In this document: piece by piece, positions 1 through 12,478 of the stretch
Layout: the number at the start of each line of letters is the position of its first letter
Position numbering within the stretch: the first letter of the stretch is position 1
Assembly: GCA_016839445.1 (NCBI GenBank)
Contig: JAEOUG010000145.1
Span: 1-32,210, forward strand
Origin: Candidatus Thorarchaeota archaeon
GTDB taxonomy: Archaea; Asgardarchaeota; Thorarchaeia; Thorarchaeales; Thorarchaeaceae
Reading direction: 5' to 3'
DNA: 32,210 bases
Translations under genes and position numbers: made by a program
Notes under the pieces: generated by a model
The model's database searches: none
What the model saw: only the letters and a program-made list of their open reading frames with translations
What the model was told of the DNA's origin: nothing

Positions 1-235
1 CGTAGTCGGGATCGCGGGTTGGAACTCACCCGCGTGAACCTGGAATCCCTAGTATCCGCGTGTCACTATCGCGCGGAGAATACGTCCCTGCTTCTTGCAC
101 ACACCGCCCGTCGCTCCATGCGAGCGGACTTGGGGTGAGGTGTCGTCCACTGGGCGATGACGAATCTTGGGTTCGCAAGTAGGGAGAAGTCGTAACAAGG
201 TATCCGTAGCGGAAGCTGCGGATGGATCACCTCCT
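1..235 (+). rRNA. rrs: 16S rRNA, 3' end (partial, begins before window), archaeal type
   Basis: Universal SSU motifs TTGCACACACCGCCCGTC (~95-112), AAGTCGTAACAAGG (187-200), helix 45 with GGAA loop, and anti-Shine-Dalgarno GGATCACCTCCT (224-235). Confidence 0.98.
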
Positions 236-250
236 ATGCTTTATCCATCT

Positions 251-355
251 CAGATGGGTAAGAAGTAGAGGCGGCGGAGTTAGTTGTGCAGCTTAGGTTG
301 CATCCAGGGAACTTTCCCACACCCACATTGTTGAGCACCCTTTTCATTTTGCATA
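251..355 (+). repeat. ~105-nt structured repeat, copy 1 (native 16S 3' trailer, ending in a T-rich terminator-like tract)
   Basis: Starts ~15 nt after the 16S end; 265-314 is identical to 923-972; internal hairpins TGCAGC-TTAG-GTTGCA and GGGA-ACTT-TCCC; ends CCCTTTTCATTTTGCAT. Confidence 0.92.
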
Positions 356-433
356 GTCAATCCAACGCAGTAGACATGCTGTATTGCTGTCAGGCAACAA
401 CGAGATTATAAGCAACTATCAGTACTATAAGTC

Positions 434-631
434 ATGATAGATATGAGCGAGACAACCACTATTCCTCTCACTAAGGCGACTCGTGATCTCTTGAAGCGGT
501 TCGGACAGAAGGGAGAGACCTACGATGAACTCATTCGCCGTCTCCTTGAGGTAGCCCAACAGGTGGAATTCGCTAACAGGCAGAGACGAATACTCGAGGA
601 AGAGGAGTTCGTGCCGCTTGACCAAGTATAG
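434..631 (+). CDS. Putative antitoxin, ribbon-helix-helix-like
   Basis: 65 aa (start may be ATG 443); TTIPLTKATRDLLKRFG..GETYDELIRRLL resembles archaeal RHH antitoxins; acidic C-terminus; overlaps the downstream RelE gene by 14 nt. Confidence 0.8.
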   Translation: MIDMSETTTIPLTKATRDLLKRFGQKGETYDELIRRLLEVAQQVEFANRQRRILEEEEFVPLDQV

Positions 632-899
632 AGTTCTGCTTTCTGAGTCCGCGGTTTCTCAACTGAGTTTGCTTGATGGAAAGCAGAAGAGCAGAGTCAG
701 GAAAGCTCTGTTCACGTTAGAGGACGACCCCTTCAGAAGGAGATCTGGTACAGACATCAAGAGGCTTCTGACTCCGAGTGAACCAGCTCTGTTCCGACTG
801 CGGATAGGTGACTATCGCGCTATCTACTTCGTAATAGACCAAGAAGTCAGGGTGACCGAGATAATCCATCGAAGTAAGGGATACAAGTGGCTGGAGTAG
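618..899 (+). CDS. relE: RelE/ParE family type II toxin
   Basis: 93 aa basic protein, YRVLLSESA...FRLRIGDYRAIY...IIHRSKGY, typical RelE signature. Confidence 0.9.
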   Translation: MTKYRVLLSESAVSQLSLLDGKQKSRVRKALFTLEDDPFRRRSGTDIKRLLTPSEPALFRLRIGDYRAIYFVIDQEVRVTEIIHRSKGYKWLE

Positions 900-908
900 T
901 CTTCACCC

Positions 909-1011
909 CAGATACGTAAGAGGTAGAGGCGGCGGAGTTAGTTGTGCAGCTTAGGTTGCATCCAGGGAACTTGCCCTCCTCACATTGTTGAGCACCCTTT
1001 CATTTTGCATA
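909..1011 (+). repeat. 16S-trailer repeat, copy 2
   Basis: CAGATACGTAAGAGGTAGAGGCGGCGGAGTTAGTTGTGCAGCTTAGGTTGCATCCAGGGAACTT...GAGCACCCTTTCATTTTGCATA; near-identical to 251-355; begins 10 nt after the relE stop. Confidence 0.95.
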
Positions 1012-1041
1012 TTTCGTTGGTTGTAGTAGATTCCCTTATCG

Positions 1042-1527
1042 TCACTTCAAGTAGTAGCTGTGATCACAGCAATCATCCCCACTCATGAGTCGTTTCGTAA
1101 TCTTGAACTCCATGGCCGGATTGAAGCCTGCAACTATGTGGGGATCAGTACTGCAATGAAACACTAGTCCATGCTCAGGCTTACCAATCTCGAGATACGT
1201 GTCTGCGATAGGGCATTTCGTGCAACGGATCTGTGCAGAGTTCTCGGTCCTCTCGACTGTGAACTCACCGCCTGCCTGCTCAAATGAACTCCACAGTGTG
1301 TCGAGAATGGCGTCGATGTCGTTGCTTCCGTGCTGTTTGGCAATCTCAAACCACGTTTTCTTGATGGTGTCGGCAATAATCTCAAGGACCCGTTTCTCTG
1401 CTTGTGGTCCGAATTCCCTCTCATATCTCTCAACAAGAGATCTCAGTCTCTCCGGATCTGGTCGAGCACTATGGATCTGCTTCACCAATTCCTTGAGTCG
1501 ATCATCTTCAGTATGAAGGTCTGTCAT
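1042..1527 (-). CDS. L-2-amino-thiazoline-4-carboxylic acid hydrolase-like (ATC hydrolase/V4R-like) protein, paralog 1
   Basis: 161 aa; CTKCPIA...FHCSTD..IVAGFNP.....KRLMSGDDCCD Cys pattern typical of this family; true activity unknown. Confidence 0.75.
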   Translation of the reverse strand: MTDLHTEDDRLKELVKQIHSARPDPERLRSLVERYEREFGPQAEKRVLEIIADTIKKTWFEIAKQHGSNDIDAILDTLWSSFEQAGGEFTVERTENSAQIRCTKCPIADTYLEIGKPEHGLVFHCSTDPHIVAGFNPAMEFKITKRLMSGDDCCDHSYYLK

Positions 1528-1602
1528 GTTTCAGTCTGTGGCTGAACAGCATAAGAAGCACTAGCTCCAATTGAGTTCAAGGGAAAGCAGTCTGTCCACC
1601 TT

Positions 1603-1704
1603 AGATGGGTAAGAAGTAGAGGCGGCGGAGTCAGTTGTGCAGCTTGGGCTGCATCCAGGGAACTTGCCCTACTCACATTACTGAGCACCCTTTCTGTTTT
1701 GCAT
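1603..1704 (+). repeat. 16S-trailer repeat, copy 3
   Basis: AGATGGGTAAGAAGTAGAGGCGGCGGAGTCAGTTGTGCAGCTTGGGCTGCATCCAGGGAACTTGCCC...CTGAGCACCCTTTCTGTTTTGCAT; several substitutions preserve or improve predicted pairing. Confidence 0.93.
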
Positions 1705-1746
1705 TATCCATGTCGATAGTCCTGTCTGCAGGTGTACGCCTTCACT

Positions 1747-2508
1747 TCATAATGAGGCGACCACCAACATCTCGAAGTCCTCAGTTGTCAGTTCATGCTC
1801 TCTAGAGAACTCGCCGAGCCTGGCACCGAAGATGCAGATGTTTCTGAAACCGAGGCTCTTCAGTAGCCATGTTATCTCACTTGGCACGTAGTACCTCTCG
1901 TTTGCCCTGAGTTCCAGCTCTTTGCCGTCATCATCAGTGATTGTGATGATGCTGTGGTCCCTGAATGTCATGAGGTCAAATGTATTGGATCTGTATGTGG
2001 CCTTCCCGTCCTTTGTGCCCACTGCATGGAACTCCTCAACTGAGTGGCAAAGCGGAAACAACCCGTTCAGGCTGGTGAAGATGAACCTGCCAGGACTGCG
2101 AAGGGCCCTGGCCACGCCCTCCAGTATCTGATAGTTCATCTCATCGGTCTCCATGAGTGGAAAGGCGCCCTCGCAGAGCATGATGGCGGCATCGAACTCA
2201 TTTTCGAATGGGAGCTCTCTGGCATCAAGGCGCAGGAACTCTACCTCCACACCTGCCTCCTCAGCTTTCTGCTTGGCCCTGACGAGCTGGGCCTCTGACA
2301 GGTCGATGCCAGTTACATCGTATCCCCTCTTGGCCAGTTCTATTGCATGTCTTCCAGTACCGCAGCCCACATCAAGAATGCGGAGTGCCTTGTCACGGGC
2401 CAGCTCCTTCTCGATGAAGTCGCATTCCCCCAGCGTGCCTTTGACGAACGACTCCTCGTCGTACTTTCTGGCATAATTCTCGAAGAGGGCCTCGTACCAT
2501 TCCTTCAT
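1747..2508 (-). CDS. Class I SAM-dependent methyltransferase
   Basis: 253 aa; motif I ILDVGCGTGRH, VTGIDLS, LDARELPFENEFD. Confidence 0.92.
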   Translation of the reverse strand: MKEWYEALFENYARKYDEESFVKGTLGECDFIEKELARDKALRILDVGCGTGRHAIELAKRGYDVTGIDLSEAQLVRAKQKAEEAGVEVEFLRLDARELPFENEFDAAIMLCEGAFPLMETDEMNYQILEGVARALRSPGRFIFTSLNGLFPLCHSVEEFHAVGTKDGKATYRSNTFDLMTFRDHSIITITDDDGKELELRANERYYVPSEITWLLKSLGFRNICIFGARLGEFSREHELTTEDFEMLVVASL

Positions 2509-2821
2509 CTTGCTTCCTCTTGAGTGTCTACGATATGGGACTATGGACGGATATTATCTAAAGACTTCTACTCCTGAGAATAGGTCACAACTCACAAGGT
2601 ATCTGTCGCAGAAGCTGCCTGCTGGAAGAGGATGAGATTTCCAGTCGCGCCTGTACCACGATTCGAGAAGCGCTGTAGTGCTACCCCTAATCGGTCACAT
2701 GATTGACGGTCAGAAAAGACCACGGCTTTCAAAACGGCAATGGATTTGGAGGCTGTTGCTTCATTGCTGTCTTGAGGCTTGTTATATGCACCGAGTGCGC
2801 ATCTAGACCAGTGAGAGTCAG

Positions 2822-3868
2822 ATGTCTGGCCAGAAGGAATACGACGGCAGTAGGATCTACCTTTCGTTGGCAGGTAGCGGTGACCCATGGAGTTCTCTAA
2901 GCAAATTAAGAAAGAGGATTCTGAGAGAGCTGCATGATGCGCCTGATGTCGGCAATCTAGCATCGATACTTGACAAGACTCCTGATGAACTAGAAGCGGA
3001 GATTCATCCAATGATGGCGGCAAGTCTTGTCCATGAGACAGACGGAGGATTTCGGCCATCATTTCTTGTCACAGATGAATCTGAGACTCAGAGGGTGTTT
3101 GCTCATGCATCCGATTTTTCTAAGGCTCTAGTTGACACGACAGAAGCGAAGCTCTCTTGGATCAAATCAGAGTATGAGAAACTCGAGATCAATCAAGAGC
3201 ATGGTTTCGAAGAGGTATCCCTCTTCTTTCTAGGTGGACGAATACTTGACATCAAACTGCTCGAGAAACTGACGGGACACAATCGGGTGATGCCTCCTGC
3301 TCCGGCACGACCAAGTCCGAGTAGGCCCGATGCCCATTACTACTTCTACATGGTTGAAGGAGATCCCAAGAATCTTGGAGGATGGGGGCAAGATGATTCC
3401 AGAATGCCCTGGGATGGCTGGTACTTCATAACGTTTGGACAGAATGTAGTAGATGGTGAATACAATCCTCATCGTAGGTCGTTAGAGAAGCAATACGAAG
3501 AACTCATAGAATCTGGAAAAGCAGATACTCCGGAATTCGTCGGTGCAAGCTTGGGCATCCCTGTTGTGAGTCTATCCGATTCCAACATGTGGGAGAATAC
3601 CGCAGATCTCCTTGCTGAAGAACTCTGTGGATGCTATGAAGAATCTGTAGAATCCATCAGAGCATTACACAAGGGTCTGCGATCAGGCACCTACGCCCCC
3701 CACAGCATTGGTGAGTTCTTCTGCTGGTATGCTCATATTGCGTATGCCAATGCAATCGAACTAATGGAGGAACGAGGTACACTAGATATTCCCGACTCAC
3801 GCCTCCAATCGGCTATATGGTGCAGAGAAAGAGAAAACGAAGGATTGCTGGCTCATCTATCAGATTGA
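2822..3868 (+). CDS. Hypothetical protein, possible N-terminal winged-helix
   Basis: 348-aa long ORF; RILRELH...VGNLASILDKTPDELEAEIHPMMAASLV resembles a wHTH; remainder unrecognised. Confidence 0.7.
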   Translation: MSGQKEYDGSRIYLSLAGSGDPWSSLSKLRKRILRELHDAPDVGNLASILDKTPDELEAEIHPMMAASLVHETDGGFRPSFLVTDESETQRVFAHASDFSKALVDTTEAKLSWIKSEYEKLEINQEHGFEEVSLFFLGGRILDIKLLEKLTGHNRVMPPAPARPSPSRPDAHYYFYMVEGDPKNLGGWGQDDSRMPWDGWYFITFGQNVVDGEYNPHRRSLEKQYEELIESGKADTPEFVGASLGIPVVSLSDSNMWENTADLLAEELCGCYEESVESIRALHKGLRSGTYAPHSIGEFFCWYAHIAYANAIELMEERGTLDIPDSRLQSAIWCRERENEGLLAHLSD

Positions 3869-3875
3869 CTGCTCT

Positions 3876-3905
3876 ATCATCTTTGGCGCCGTTCCATTTT
3901 GCATA
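3876..3905 (+). repeat. Eroded 3' remnant of the 16S-trailer repeat
   Basis: CATCTTTGGCGCCGTTCCATTTTGCATA versus repeat end CATTGTTGAGCACCCTTTCATTTTGCATA; the following spacer (3906-3935) resembles 1012-1041. Confidence 0.6.
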
Positions 3906-3935
3906 TTCAGTTGGCTGAAGTGGATTCTCATTTTG

Positions 3936-4421
3936 TCACTTCAAGAAGTAATAGTGATCACAGCAATCATCTCCACTCATGAGCCGTTTCGTTATCTTGA
4001 ACTCCATGGATGGATTGAAGCCTGCTACAATGTGAGGGTCAGTACTGCAATGGAACATCAACCCATACTCAGGTCTGCCAATCTCAAGATAGGTGTCTGC
4101 TACCGGACACTTGGTACAACGAATCTGCGCTGAATTCTCTGTCCTCTCAACTGCAAACTCTGCCCCTACTCTCTTGAAGGGTTTCCATAGCGTATCAAGA
4201 ACGCCATCAATGTCGTTGCTCTCTACCCTCTTGGAGATCTCGGTCCATGCTCTCTTGGTGGTTTCTGCAATGATCTCGAGAACCCGATCGTCTGCCTCTG
4301 GCCCGAACTCCCTCTCGTATCTATCGAGAAGAGACTTCAACAGCTCCGGATTAGGCCGGGCGCCATGAATCTGGCTGACCAGTCTTCTGAGTTCGCCATC
4401 CTGTGTTTCCGAGTCCTTCAC
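3936..4421 (-). CDS. ATC hydrolase-like protein, paralog 2
   Basis: Clearly homologous to 1042..1527 (shared VERTENSAQIRCTKCP, FHCSTDPHIVAGFNP, MEFKITKRLMSGDDCCDH); GTG at 4421 gives the same 161-aa length, so the 4484 start is probably too long. Confidence 0.8.
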   Translation of the reverse strand: MKDSETQDGELRRLVSQIHGARPNPELLKSLLDRYEREFGPEADDRVLEIIAETTKRAWTEISKRVESNDIDGVLDTLWKPFKRVGAEFAVERTENSAQIRCTKCPVADTYLEIGRPEYGLMFHCSTDPHIVAGFNPSMEFKITKRLMSGDDCCDHYYFLK

Positions 4422-4495
4422 AGCTCTGTCCTTGGCTAGCTTGGATAAAAGACAGCAGTTCCACGCAAGTGGGACATGCCACAAGTTACTTCTTC

Positions 4496-4520
4496 TTAGA
4501 TGCGAGTACAGGCGACTGGA
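4496..4520 (+). repeat. Eroded 5' remnant of the 16S-trailer repeat
   Basis: TTAGATGCG-AGTACAGGCGACTGGA versus copy 3 TTAGATGGGTAAGAAGTAGAGGCGGCGGA, at the same distance (~75 nt) from the paralog start codon as copy 3 is from paralog 1. Confidence 0.5.
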
Positions 4521-4652
4521 TCTACCGGTTCAGCCTCCCCGTTGTGCCGTAGGCACTCTATGGCAAACGCCTGTTTGTCCGCTCGTGCTTAAATTCTTAA
4601 TACAATTCGAGTCTGCATATCTTCACCATAGAATTGGCACAGCTAACTAGAG

Positions 4653-5666
4653 GTGATTCATCTGCAGCACCTGAGACTGAGTGGTTCATACTACGACATT
4701 GGCAGAGCCTTTGGAGAATCGAGAAGGGGCCTTGACCAATACGGAGAACCAAGTGAGAAGAAGATTGAGCTTACTCTGAAGTATGGGGAGCTGCTACGGG
4801 AGCATGCCTGTGGCCTCCATGATGAGCTGATGGGTTTCTCTGACGGAATCGGACTGAGCCACGAGTCAGTCCTAGTAGCGCAGCTTCTTCCTCCTTGGGC
4901 AACGGGCTGTAATCTGTTCTTCGTAGGTGGGGAGCATACCGAACGCGGTTTCCCTATCTTTGTGAGACACATGGACTGGATAGAGGACGATTTAGAGCGT
5001 CTCGTTATGCTCGAGACAAAGCCCGAGGGAAAGAACGGCGTTCTCGGCTTCAGTTTCGCTGAGATAGGCTGCTATGATGGAATGAACGCTGGTGGTCTGG
5101 CCATAGGAACGGCCTCAGTTCCGTTCTTCAATGGAGCAAAATGCGTGGGTCTCCAAGATAAGCACGTGACCCGATGGGCACTCGACAACTTCTCGTCGGT
5201 TGAGGAAACCGTCGACTATCTGAAACATATCCCTCATGCAGAGGCAATCAATTTCCTCGTCGCGGACAAGACTGGGACCTCCGCTCGGGTGGAGGTAACA
5301 CCTACAAGGGTTCGGGCTGAAGTAGCGAGTGATGGTCTGAACGTCGTCAACAACTTCTTCATCCTCGAAGGCACGCGAGAACTTGACAGCATGCCCACGA
5401 GTGACAGGTCCTGGACTTACAACAGGAGAATCCACGACTGGTTCTCTAATGCAGGAAACAATATTGGGCTGCAAGAGGTGAAGGAAGTCTGCCGTAGTCA
5501 TGAGGAAGGTATATGCGAGCACCTGCAGGATCCTCCGGGGGGCACGATTTACTCATGGATTTCAGAACTGGGGACAAGCACAATCCATCTCTCAGTGGGC
5601 TATCCTTGCTCCAATCAGTATGTTCCGTACCATATTCCACAATCATCTGAAAGGGGCAAGAACTAG
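4653..5666 (+). CDS. Peptidase C45 family Ntn-hydrolase (acyl-CoA:6-APA acyltransferase-like)
   Basis: 337 aa; LSGSYYDIG, DELMGFSDG, G|CN autoproteolytic Cys, RHMDW, DGMNAGGLAIG, NFLVADKTG, GYPC. Confidence 0.85.
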   Translation: MIHLQHLRLSGSYYDIGRAFGESRRGLDQYGEPSEKKIELTLKYGELLREHACGLHDELMGFSDGIGLSHESVLVAQLLPPWATGCNLFFVGGEHTERGFPIFVRHMDWIEDDLERLVMLETKPEGKNGVLGFSFAEIGCYDGMNAGGLAIGTASVPFFNGAKCVGLQDKHVTRWALDNFSSVEETVDYLKHIPHAEAINFLVADKTGTSARVEVTPTRVRAEVASDGLNVVNNFFILEGTRELDSMPTSDRSWTYNRRIHDWFSNAGNNIGLQEVKEVCRSHEEGICEHLQDPPGGTIYSWISELGTSTIHLSVGYPCSNQYVPYHIPQSSERGKN

Positions 5667-5813
5667 GGGCGCGAAGCTGGTTCTTCAACTCAGGCTCGCC
5701 CGGGAACCATCTACTGGGACACATTGCTGGCATCCGGTTCCTTCTGCCAGCCACACCAGAAACCAATTCAATAGCCGGCAAAGTACTAATACTCTCTCAG
5801 TGGTCGCAGGTTC

Positions 5814-11461: not shown

Positions 11462-12478
11462 CTATCTTGTTTCCAATCTCAGATCTCGAATCTGCTTCCC
11501 TATCGTGCCTTCTATTTCCCCGATTCTCTTTCGTAGACTCTCAATTGCCTTCATCTTGGCATCTAGGGCGCTCTTCTTCTCTCGGTCAATCTTCATGTAC
11601 TCCTCATAGGCCTCTGACCAGGCCTCTCGCGTTTCCGTGATCTGCTTCTTCAGGTGCTCGTACATGATACGCTTGACATGGATCGTATTCCTGAGATTGA
11701 GGAGGGCGGTTTCCTTGCCTGTGGTGAATTCCGCGAGGTCCGATTCGGCCGCCTTGAGTTTTGCCTTGAGGTCCACTAGCTCAGTCATCGAGAGTCCAAT
11801 CTGCGCTTCCTGCACGAAGTCTTGTTCAGGAACTGCCTCGCTCCGGGAATTGGCTTCCACAGTCACGACCGGAGTGGTCTGCATCTCAGCTAGTTCCTCG
11901 GGTTTCTCCTCTGCAGACGCATCGCTATCCTCCTGCCTGATCATCAGTCTGCAGAGCGATCGAAATGCCTCTTCGATGTTCTCTCCGGTGACAGCAGAGG
12001 TTTCTATGAACACGGCGGGGGTGTTCAGTTTCTCTCCGAACATCTTGGCAAAGGCCTGCCCTTCTTCAGACGTAATCACGTCCTCGGGAGGGTATGATGG
12101 GCGCAGGTCCACCTTGTTAGCTGCGATGATGAGAGGGGGAAGTCCTCCGAGGAAACCGTGTGCCTCCACAAGCCACTTCGAGGCGTTGTCAAACGATTCG
12201 CGGTCCACAACGGAGTATGCAAGAATCATGCCTGCGCATCCCTCGTAGTATCGGCGCCGGAGTCCGCTGAATGCCTCCTGACCAGCTATGTCCCAAATAA
12301 CTAGACGCACCGATAAGCCGTCCAGATCCATTGTCTTGTTGGCAAAGTCCACCCCTAGGGTGGGTATGTAGTTGGTCTTGAAGACCTGGCCGAGGTATTT
12401 CCTGCGAATGCTTGTCTTCCCAACAAACCCGTCCCCAATGAGACATACCTTGAATTGCCAACGGAGCTGCTCAGACAC
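11462..12478 (-). CDS. Rab-like small GTPase with C-terminal coiled-coil extension
   Basis: G1 GDGFVGKTS, G2 YIPTLGVDF, G3 WDIAGQE, G4 NKVD, G5 ETSA; followed by an acidic linker and ~110 aa of heptad-rich helix. Confidence 0.92.
   Translation of the reverse strand: MSEQLRWQFKVCLIGDGFVGKTSIRRKYLGQVFKTNYIPTLGVDFANKTMDLDGLSVRLVIWDIAGQEAFSGLRRRYYEGCAGMILAYSVVDRESFDNASKWLVEAHGFLGGLPPLIIAANKVDLRPSYPPEDVITSEEGQAFAKMFGEKLNTPAVFIETSAVTGENIEEAFRSLCRLMIRQEDSDASAEEKPEELAEMQTTPVVTVEANSRSEAVPEQDFVQEAQIGLSMTELVDLKAKLKAAESDLAEFTTGKETALLNLRNTIHVKRIMYEHLKKQITETREAWSEAYEEYMKIDREKKSALDAKMKAIESLRKRIGEIEGTIGKQIRDLRLETR

Follow-up and report, generated by a model that had tools for sequence, protein, structure and literature searches.

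The window analysed here is a 32,210-nt stretch of DNA from Candidatus Thorarchaeota archaeon (assembly GCA_016839445.1, contig JAEOUG010000145.1; G000:C119 in our numbering), which is an entire contig and starts inside the 16S rRNA gene. Directly behind the 16S 3' end lie three direct copies of a ~105-nt repeat, with four worn remnants further out, and between them small accessory genes (Table 1). The 5' part of the 16S gene is located on a separate contig (G000:C6:11-780, minus strand), so that the gene is split across two contigs; no sequence for model positions ~826-1242 was recovered from the assembly. The repeats that delimit the units are paralogues of the 16S trailer, and they mark an island, anchored on the 3' end of the unlinked 16S gene, that recurs across the family.

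Comparison of the window with itself places the copies at 246-348, 904-1006 and 1597-1699, with start-to-start spacings of 658 and 693 nt, in agreement with the ~660 and ~690 bp given in the initial annotation. When positions 236-360 were searched by BLAST against the whole 2.9-Mb genome, copy 2 (92% identity, E 2e-36) and copy 3 (87%, E 1.7e-32) were recovered, and the remaining seven matches all had E values of at least 0.17. A profile built from relatives recovers the three copies in the same genome (nhmmer, E 2e-21 to 9e-19), together with one inverted copy (G000:C6:871-937), and genome-wide it gives no further direct copy beyond these and a weak match at 5643-5747. A dispersed repeat of the type of miniature inverted-repeat transposable elements (MITE) or repetitive extragenic palindromes, a possibility that the initial annotation had left to a genome-wide search, is refuted because the matches (three full, one worn and one inverted in the leader) are confined to the 16S locus.

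The inverted copy sits in the 16S leader, because the 5' part of the gene lies on the minus strand of C6. In archaea, the leader and trailer of pre-16S rRNA form a helix that is cut by the splicing endonuclease. Cofolding of leader and trailer of this genome predicts a helix of ~75 bp, whose base is a perfect 13-bp pairing between GCTCAACAATGTG and CACATTGTTGAGC, and a leader-trailer helix was likewise obtained in two relatives (L042 and L056). Since copy 1 is predicted to pair with the leader over this ~75-bp helix, it is best taken as the 3' side of the pre-16S processing stem plus a probable termination tract, with a small hairpin at its 5' side (CCATC-TCA-GATGG) and a U-rich tail at its end (CCCTTTTCATTTTGCAT). 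The best-conserved part across copies is precisely the leader-pairing block and the U-rich tail behind it. Cofolding energies with the leader are -102, -101 and -93 kcal/mol for copies 1, 2 and 3, respectively, copy 3 carrying two substitutions in its leader-pairing core (CACATTACTGAGC). The resemblance to the archaeal processing stem lies in copy 1, which forms the 3' side of such a helix, and in the inverted copy found in the leader; the difference is that the 3' strand recurs here as numerous additional direct copies, between which protein-coding units lie. A bulge-helix-bulge motif was not located in the leader-trailer duplexes, for which no dedicated test was made.

Pfam scans, whose thresholds varied from 0.01 to 1e-10, bear out the gene content initially assigned to the units. 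The first unit holds a toxin-antitoxin (TA) pair whose toxin stop codon lies 3 nt upstream of copy 2, and which is preceded by a conserved upstream region of its own that looks like a promoter. Two eroded copies had been proposed beyond the third full one. The first of these (3876-3905) is indeed the 3' third of a copy, at the head of a 300-nt duplication (992-1291 versus 3886-4185, 79% identity) that includes the ATC_hydrolase gene copy; the second (4496-4520, within 4494-4555) resembles a worn 5' part of the repeat by eye, and there is no significant profile match. Neither 4494-4555 nor 5643-5747 was recovered with a later profile. The AAT-family gene that ends at the latter also forms a unit between repeats on two further contigs (L045 and L051). 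Further away, downstream of the array, there is a gene for a small GTPase of the Ras/Roc family (11465-12478, minus strand), a family also found in the array flank of L048.

Table 1. Features of the 16S-linked array in the window, and loci of the giant open reading frame (ORF) in relatives.
Feature	Position	Strand	Evidence and remarks
16S rRNA gene, 3' part	1-235	+	Rfam RF01959, 220 bits; model positions 1243-1478
Repeat copy 1, true 16S trailer	245-355	+	nhmmer E 2e-21; predicted to pair with the G000:C6 leader
DUF7557 antitoxin, unit 1	434-631	+	Pfam PF24434, E 9e-8
ParE/RelE-family toxin, unit 1	618-899	+	Pfam PF05016, E 3e-7
Repeat copy 2	903-1011	+	92% identity to copy 1; nhmmer E 8e-19
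ATC_hydrolase-family gene, unit 2	1042-1527	-	Pfam PF14196, E 9e-18
Repeat copy 3	1597-1704	+	87% identity to copy 1; nhmmer E 9e-19
S-adenosylmethionine-dependent methyltransferase, unit 3	1747-2508	-	Pfam PF13649, E 4e-22
Worn pseudo-16S 3' end	2596-2642	+	22/25 identical to 195-219; long-unit profile E 2e-6 in 8 kb
ORF of 348 aa without Pfam family, unit 4	2822-3868	+	
Remnant, 3' third of repeat	3864-3909	+	Heads the 300-nt duplication; bound at 3864 set by eye
Second ATC_hydrolase-family gene, unit 5	3936-4484	-	Pfam PF14196, E 2e-18
Possible worn repeat copy	4494-4555	+	CTTAGATG..AGTACAGGCGAC like the repeat 5' part, by eye
AAT-family (acyl-CoA:6-APA acyltransferase-like) gene	4653-5666	+	Pfam PF03417, E 2e-18
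Worn repeat copy at the AAT gene end	5643-5747	+	nhmmer E 5.5e-5; E 0.076 genome-wide
Giant ORF without Pfam family	L055:5937-12746, L060:4034-11113, L102:320-7499, L103:385-5824, L111:5696-10477		

The initial annotation had stated that no copy contains 16S sequence. This is correct for the three full copies, and wrong for the stretch 2596-2642 and for the repeated units of many relatives, which include the last 27-90 nt of 16S. The longer units consist of ACAAGG, helix 45, GGATGGA, a 31-nt hairpin insert and TCACCTCCTA, followed by the trailer. We found 16 full-length true or pseudo 16S ends with the 31-nt insert, five of which had been used to build the search profile; of these 16 ends, 12 lie within arrays. 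The insert-bearing end is the genuine 16S end in G001, G003, G016 and, by position, G015, while G018 and G013 have a plain 16S end of their own and insert-bearing ends inside their arrays; array-internal insert-bearing ends are also present in G012, G023 and G004, whose own 16S ends were not seen. In G001, the internal unit matches the genuine 16S end and its trailer at 98.3% identity over 239 nt. In two other genera (L100 and L094) the duplication extends 27 and 43 nt into 16S, respectively. Overall, the left bound of the duplication lies at +9, -27, -43 or ACAAGG. In the window, 2596-2642 resembles helix 45 and then runs into the first part of a 31-nt insert that is missing from the window's own 16S (E 0.0037 with a shorter profile). 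It probably marks an old unit joint; no trailer sequence can be recognized behind it any longer. By analogy, pseudo-16S ends are the footprint that would be left by an integration such as those into the 3' end of a transfer RNA (tRNA) gene. A sharp crossover point was considered and discarded, as truncated copies begin or end at scattered profile positions: 16 keep the 3' part only, starting at positions 31-61, and five keep the 5' part only.

The 16S 3' region itself is variable in Thorarchaeota. Several members carry a hairpin insert of 28-30 nt at UCGUA^ACAAGG, and a second insert, of 31 nt, separates GGAUGGA from UCACCUCC, immediately ahead of the anti-Shine-Dalgarno region. Ends with both inserts occur in L060 (11316-11391, minus strand), L055, L058 and L111; the window has neither of them (190-235).

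The array is widespread among relatives. In 15 congeneric metagenome-assembled genomes (MAGs), including that of the window, we identified 128 profile matches on 21 contigs or stretches, spaced by ~0.3 to 10 kb. All of these except two (126 of 128) are co-oriented within their contig, and the two others are inverted and lie just upstream of 16S. On the contigs that hold 16S (the window, L042, L043, L056, L055, L058 and L060), the array begins at the 16S 3' end. In other genera of the same GTDB family, considering genomes with at least 6 kb behind 16S, five of nine contain additional trailer copies (one to four each) and the other four contain none, and one genome of a neighbouring family shows neither the element nor any self-repeat. 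An exact-pattern scan for the repeat core in one genome of each of 185,579 species returned 31 stretches, 25 of which are titled Thorarchaeota or Promethearchaeota, five 'uncultured archaeon' and one Burkholderiales. Metagenome contigs of other assemblies yielded 70 copies in 32 of 33 stretches, and some array-bearing contigs are 120-243 kb long. An exact-pattern scan of metagenome contigs for the central hairpin specific to G000 gave no match, and hence no close strain variants by this route. Similarly, two forms of the conserved core had no match (0 and 0) among the viral contigs scanned, which therefore provide no candidate virus bearing a phage attachment site (attP). A metagenome contig of 1336 nt with a copy near each end was considered as a possible circle, and was set aside as an array fragment since its two copies are 91.5% alike. 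Nine of 20 contigs from other Thorarchaeota genera stop within 1.3 kb behind 16S (L095-L099, L105, L107, L109 and L110), which suggests that repeats behind 16S break short-read assemblies in these genera.

Number and order of units differ among relatives, where a fixed order would have spoken against the cassette-like array delimited by 16S trailer copies that was initially proposed and that is supported by our data. G002 and G004, whose flanks are 92-93% identical, differ in having three repeat-bounded units (3.1 kb) versus one (1.4 kb), and G003 has two extra units between 16S and a giant gene with respect to G001 and G016. Homologues of the window's TA unit occur on nine further congeneric contigs, in differing company and in every case with a repeat behind them. 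When ORFs from all arrays were clustered into gene families, using crude gene calls (longest ORFs), not a single pair of repeats from different species shared both neighbouring families; 58-70 pairs shared the left neighbour only and 32-46 the right one only, depending on the segment scored. The repeats are mosaics: the first 22 nt track the unit to the left (identity 0.67 versus a background of 0.545), positions 49-71 track the genome (0.658 versus 0.60), and the last block is ~82% identical everywhere, even between unrelated copies. Consistently, the same 5' repeat type is found in 10 of 10 TA units.

The cargo detected by Pfam comprises TA pairs (ParE, VapBC and HicA), GNAT acetyltransferases, methyltransferases, glyoxalase-like, Cass2/GyrI-like, MerB-like and nucleotidyltransferase-like proteins, restriction-modification genes, and many ORFs without family. 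The smallest units measure 0.55-0.7 kb, and 59 of 145 array ORFs are antisense to the repeats. In one array, a gene of the IS605-type OrfB/TnpB family (L044:2875-4095, minus strand) splits the TA unit between antitoxin and toxin.

Some features of the repeat concern RNA rather than DNA. The top strand folds better than the bottom one in 55 of 61 near-full copies (mean -28.4 versus -21.4 kcal/mol), and with DNA parameters it is still the more stable in 46 of 61. The sequence of the small 5' hairpin varies while its pairing is kept, the loop being often C-UUCG-G as judged by eye. This strand bias and the compensating changes in the hairpin would point to a life as RNA. A conserved self-hairpin as the main feature of the repeat was dropped, as the RNAalifold consensus of 52 of the 61 near-full copies (nine with long inserts or poor ends being excluded) is limited to a 4-bp GGGA/TCCC hairpin. 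A search of the window at Rfam gathering thresholds returned the small-subunit rRNA only, and a permissive search of 230-1760 returned nothing at E ≤ 10.

Concerning a recombinase, none had been noticed in the window, and Pfam scans of its ORFs agree. No recombinase family was detected by Pfam among the scanned ORFs of the window, the arrays, their flanks, other genera and metagenome contigs, nor did we find an enzyme gene common to all arrays. Phage_integrase (PF00589) has no match over cut-off in G000 and none on the array contigs examined; it is present in eight of 28 genomes of the genus and missing from the 20 others (71-99% complete), in which not even a Xer-type recombinase was detected. 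Other genes of potential interest were observed in individual arrays. A gene for an HNH endonuclease lies directly before an internal pseudo-16S end in L043 (14955-15500, minus strand), and in this array only. A giant ORF without Pfam family, of 1463-1723 aa (870 aa in L103), occurs across four genera; it follows the first trailer in four genomes, and in L111 three copies precede it. Beside it, L055, L060, L102 and L103 encode a protein of ~555 aa with a Cas12f1-like TNB (TnpB-like) domain, which we rejected as a general driver since it was not found in G000 with that query.

Integrative elements are known to accrete in tandem at the 3' ends of stable RNA genes, as in tRNA and transfer-messenger RNA (tmRNA) islands. 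The array resembles such islands in targeting a stable RNA gene at its 3' end, in its accessory cargo, in direct repeats that may include a partial gene 3' end, and in head-to-tail units behind an intact gene. Direct repeats containing part of the target gene are indeed represented by the 12 internal pseudo-16S ends and by the duplications in other genera, while no integrase is encoded among the array ORFs scanned. The differences are that the target here is the 16S end plus its processing-stem trailer, that units can be as small as 0.55-0.7 kb, lack an integrase and have variable duplication bounds, and that most genomes of the genus are devoid of tyrosine recombinases.

A second comparison, already drawn in the initial annotation, is with integrons and with clusters of attC sites lacking integrases (CALINs). 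As CALINs lack IntI by definition, the absence of IntI alone does not exclude a CALIN. The cargo is similar (TA pairs, GNAT acetyltransferases, methyltransferases and a Cass2-like protein), as is the variation of gene order among relatives. In contrast with integrons and CALINs, no IntI was found here, many genes are antisense, the repeat is homologous to the rRNA trailer, and conservation continues for ~20 nt beyond the GTTGAGC motif. The attC site is defined by the consensus motifs R'' (RYYYAAC) and R' (GTTRRRY), applied here without a dedicated tool, and it folds on the bottom strand. R' (as GTTGAGC) is present in 50 of 61 near-full copies, R'' occurs 40-150 nt upstream in one of 61, a complementary R box in none, and the repeat folds better on the top strand. 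The repeats were therefore discarded as attC sites, for want of an inverted R''/R' core and because the wrong strand folds, and the integron analogy fails on its defining features. Integrons and CALINs have been reported in Archaea, with an enrichment in Asgard, in a study whose main text contains neither '16S' nor 'rRNA' (Ghaly et al., 2022, PMC9668308). According to the accessible part of another report, mobile DNA does occur directly behind an Asgard 16S gene: HeimM2 and HeimV2 of Heimdallarchaeum are inserted between the single 16S gene and tRNA-Arg, and differ from the array described here in that each is a lone element (8 and 44 kb) equipped with machinery of its own, with no array of trailer copies described in that part (Wu et al., 2022, PMC8813620). 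In the literature searched, which covered integron, Archaea, Asgard and Thorarchaeota themes and was in part available only partially, we found no description of rRNA-trailer copies as cassette delimiters, as had been surmised. The array combines two known kinds of organization, accretion at the ends of stable RNA genes and integron-like arrays.

Is the array real, and are its copies kept for some other reason than recombination? An assembly chimera joining the 16S flanks of several strains would find some ground in the facts that the contig starts inside 16S, that the gene is on two contigs and that the data are short reads, as well as in the contigs of other genera that end soon behind 16S. 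The joint between 16S and copy 1 is moreover bridged by none of the Logan pieces listed, although neither this nor coverage gaps in single runs were counted as a finding, and joints listed inside 101-245 were left unused because the 16S/trailer sequence there is common to other organisms. Against a chimera, Logan contigs from four runs of four studies, one of these runs possibly being the source sample, bridge with 0 mismatches the joints from copy 1 through the TA pair to copy 2 (285-952) and from copy 2 through the ATC_hydrolase gene and copy 3 to the methyltransferase (943-1846), and span copy 3 twice more (1434-2283 and 1411-1745). The copies also differ by 8-13% and are hence distinct sequences, and the same architecture recurs in 15 congeneric MAGs, five genomes of other genera and 32 metagenome stretches, which makes a chimera extremely improbable. 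Among the same data, a joint 4987->5508 is listed in three runs (side 27), and one Logan contig (run X1) matches the window from 3839 on, where 255 foreign letters precede the match; as these end in an apparent 5' repeat part, they may belong to a strain variant with another upstream unit. An explanation of a different nature would be that copies are kept as working RNA, either as a hairpin plus U-tract that terminates or stabilizes transcripts or as partners of the leader, the array being a by-product. The location of copies 3-9 nt behind the stop codons of sense genes, the U-rich tail, the folding bias, the maintained 5' hairpin and the capacity of copies 1-3 to pair with the leader all speak in this sense. 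However, the repeat cannot be a terminator for the 59 antisense ORFs, the consensus structure amounts to four base pairs, copy 3 has two mismatches in its leader-pairing core, and neither pseudo-16S ends nor confinement to a single locus is explained. We consider such a role improbable as the reason for the array; it is compatible with exchange by recombination and may add to the retention of copies.

We regard it as very likely that this is a flexible island whose units are exchanged by recombination at the trailer copies, irrespective of the enzyme, and we give an even chance to the fuller statement that the exchange occurs at copies of the 16S end and trailer with host homologous recombination included. 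Units would be gained, lost and swapped by recombination inside the segment formed by the 16S end and the trailer. A single crossover of a circular piece with one copy would duplicate this segment, so that the new unit would be followed by a trailer without its gene or by a pseudo-16S end with trailer, while a double crossover between two copies of an incoming linear DNA would replace the intervening units. The general recombination machinery of the host would act, the homology arms being the best-conserved DNA common to the species. We favour it over a site-specific system because duplication bounds vary, truncation points scatter and a recombinase is missing. A dedicated trans-acting site-specific system (an unrecognised integrase, a homing endonuclease or an RNA-guided nuclease), for which the 16S end and trailer would be the attachment site and every integration would restore the 16S end and displace the old one, is a tentative possibility. 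Partial duplication of the 3' end of a target RNA gene is a hallmark of such integrations, the copies are co-oriented at a single locus with a 3' block conserved in all, and candidate genes lie at suggestive places, namely the HNH endonuclease gene before a pseudo-16S end, the TnpB-like gene behind the first trailer in several genomes and, among the Heimdallarchaeum elements, one with a homing-endonuclease-like gene in the part of the report available (PMC8813620). Nevertheless, no enzyme gene is common to the arrays, the integrase family is absent from most genomes of the genus, the HNH and TnpB-like genes are restricted as described above, and the core is found in no viral contig scanned. 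That the system would specifically be a protein-only or RNA-guided one of an unrecognised type, with the 16S end plus trailer as its true attachment site, appears unlikely; each integration would then supply a fresh 16S terminus, with its helix 45, anti-Shine-Dalgarno region and adjacent inserts, and shunt the old one downstream.

Several points weigh against exchange by host recombination as we have described it. The mechanism, with its crossovers, circular intermediates and enzyme, is inferred from end products only, as no excised circle, recent insertion from a known donor or long read was seen. Copies that share one orientation, stay at a single locus and preserve their 3' block would also be expected from a sequence-specific enzyme, and with MAGs that are 71-99% complete a trans-acting recombinase of an unrecognised family is possible. 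Because copies within a genome are related, the pair statistics are not independent, and the left-only signal may come largely from the ten-member TA family. Finally, the initial annotation had proposed that insertion always takes place at the 16S boundary and pushes older units outward. The window shows a gradient of this kind, and so do three arrays, where identity to copy 1 falls with rank (rho -0.61 in L056, -0.8 in L094 and -0.95 in L103), but not two others (+0.11 in L042 and -0.11 in L043), in one of which copy 1 and the fifth copy after it share 97% identity, so that insertion exclusively at the 16S boundary is weakly supported at best.

Asgard archaea are known for heavy gene import, by routes that are poorly known. 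The array represents a fixed hotspot, present across a family, that collects and swaps small accessory and defence-type genes, and whose joints are copies of an rRNA processing signal instead of attC or tRNA sequences. Because MAG assemblies break at the very place where it sits, the array is readily overlooked, and it affects how well a 16S gene can be linked to its genome bin. If the 16S end and trailer were a true attachment site, Thorarchaeota would exchange between species the 3' ends of their rRNA and not just cassettes, and the internal insert-type pseudo-ends in genomes with plain 16S ends would be a fossil record of that exchange. A dedicated enzyme would mean a new kind of site-specific system, one that also moves rRNA ends; if host recombination alone acts, the most conserved DNA of the cell would serve as a universal landing pad between species.

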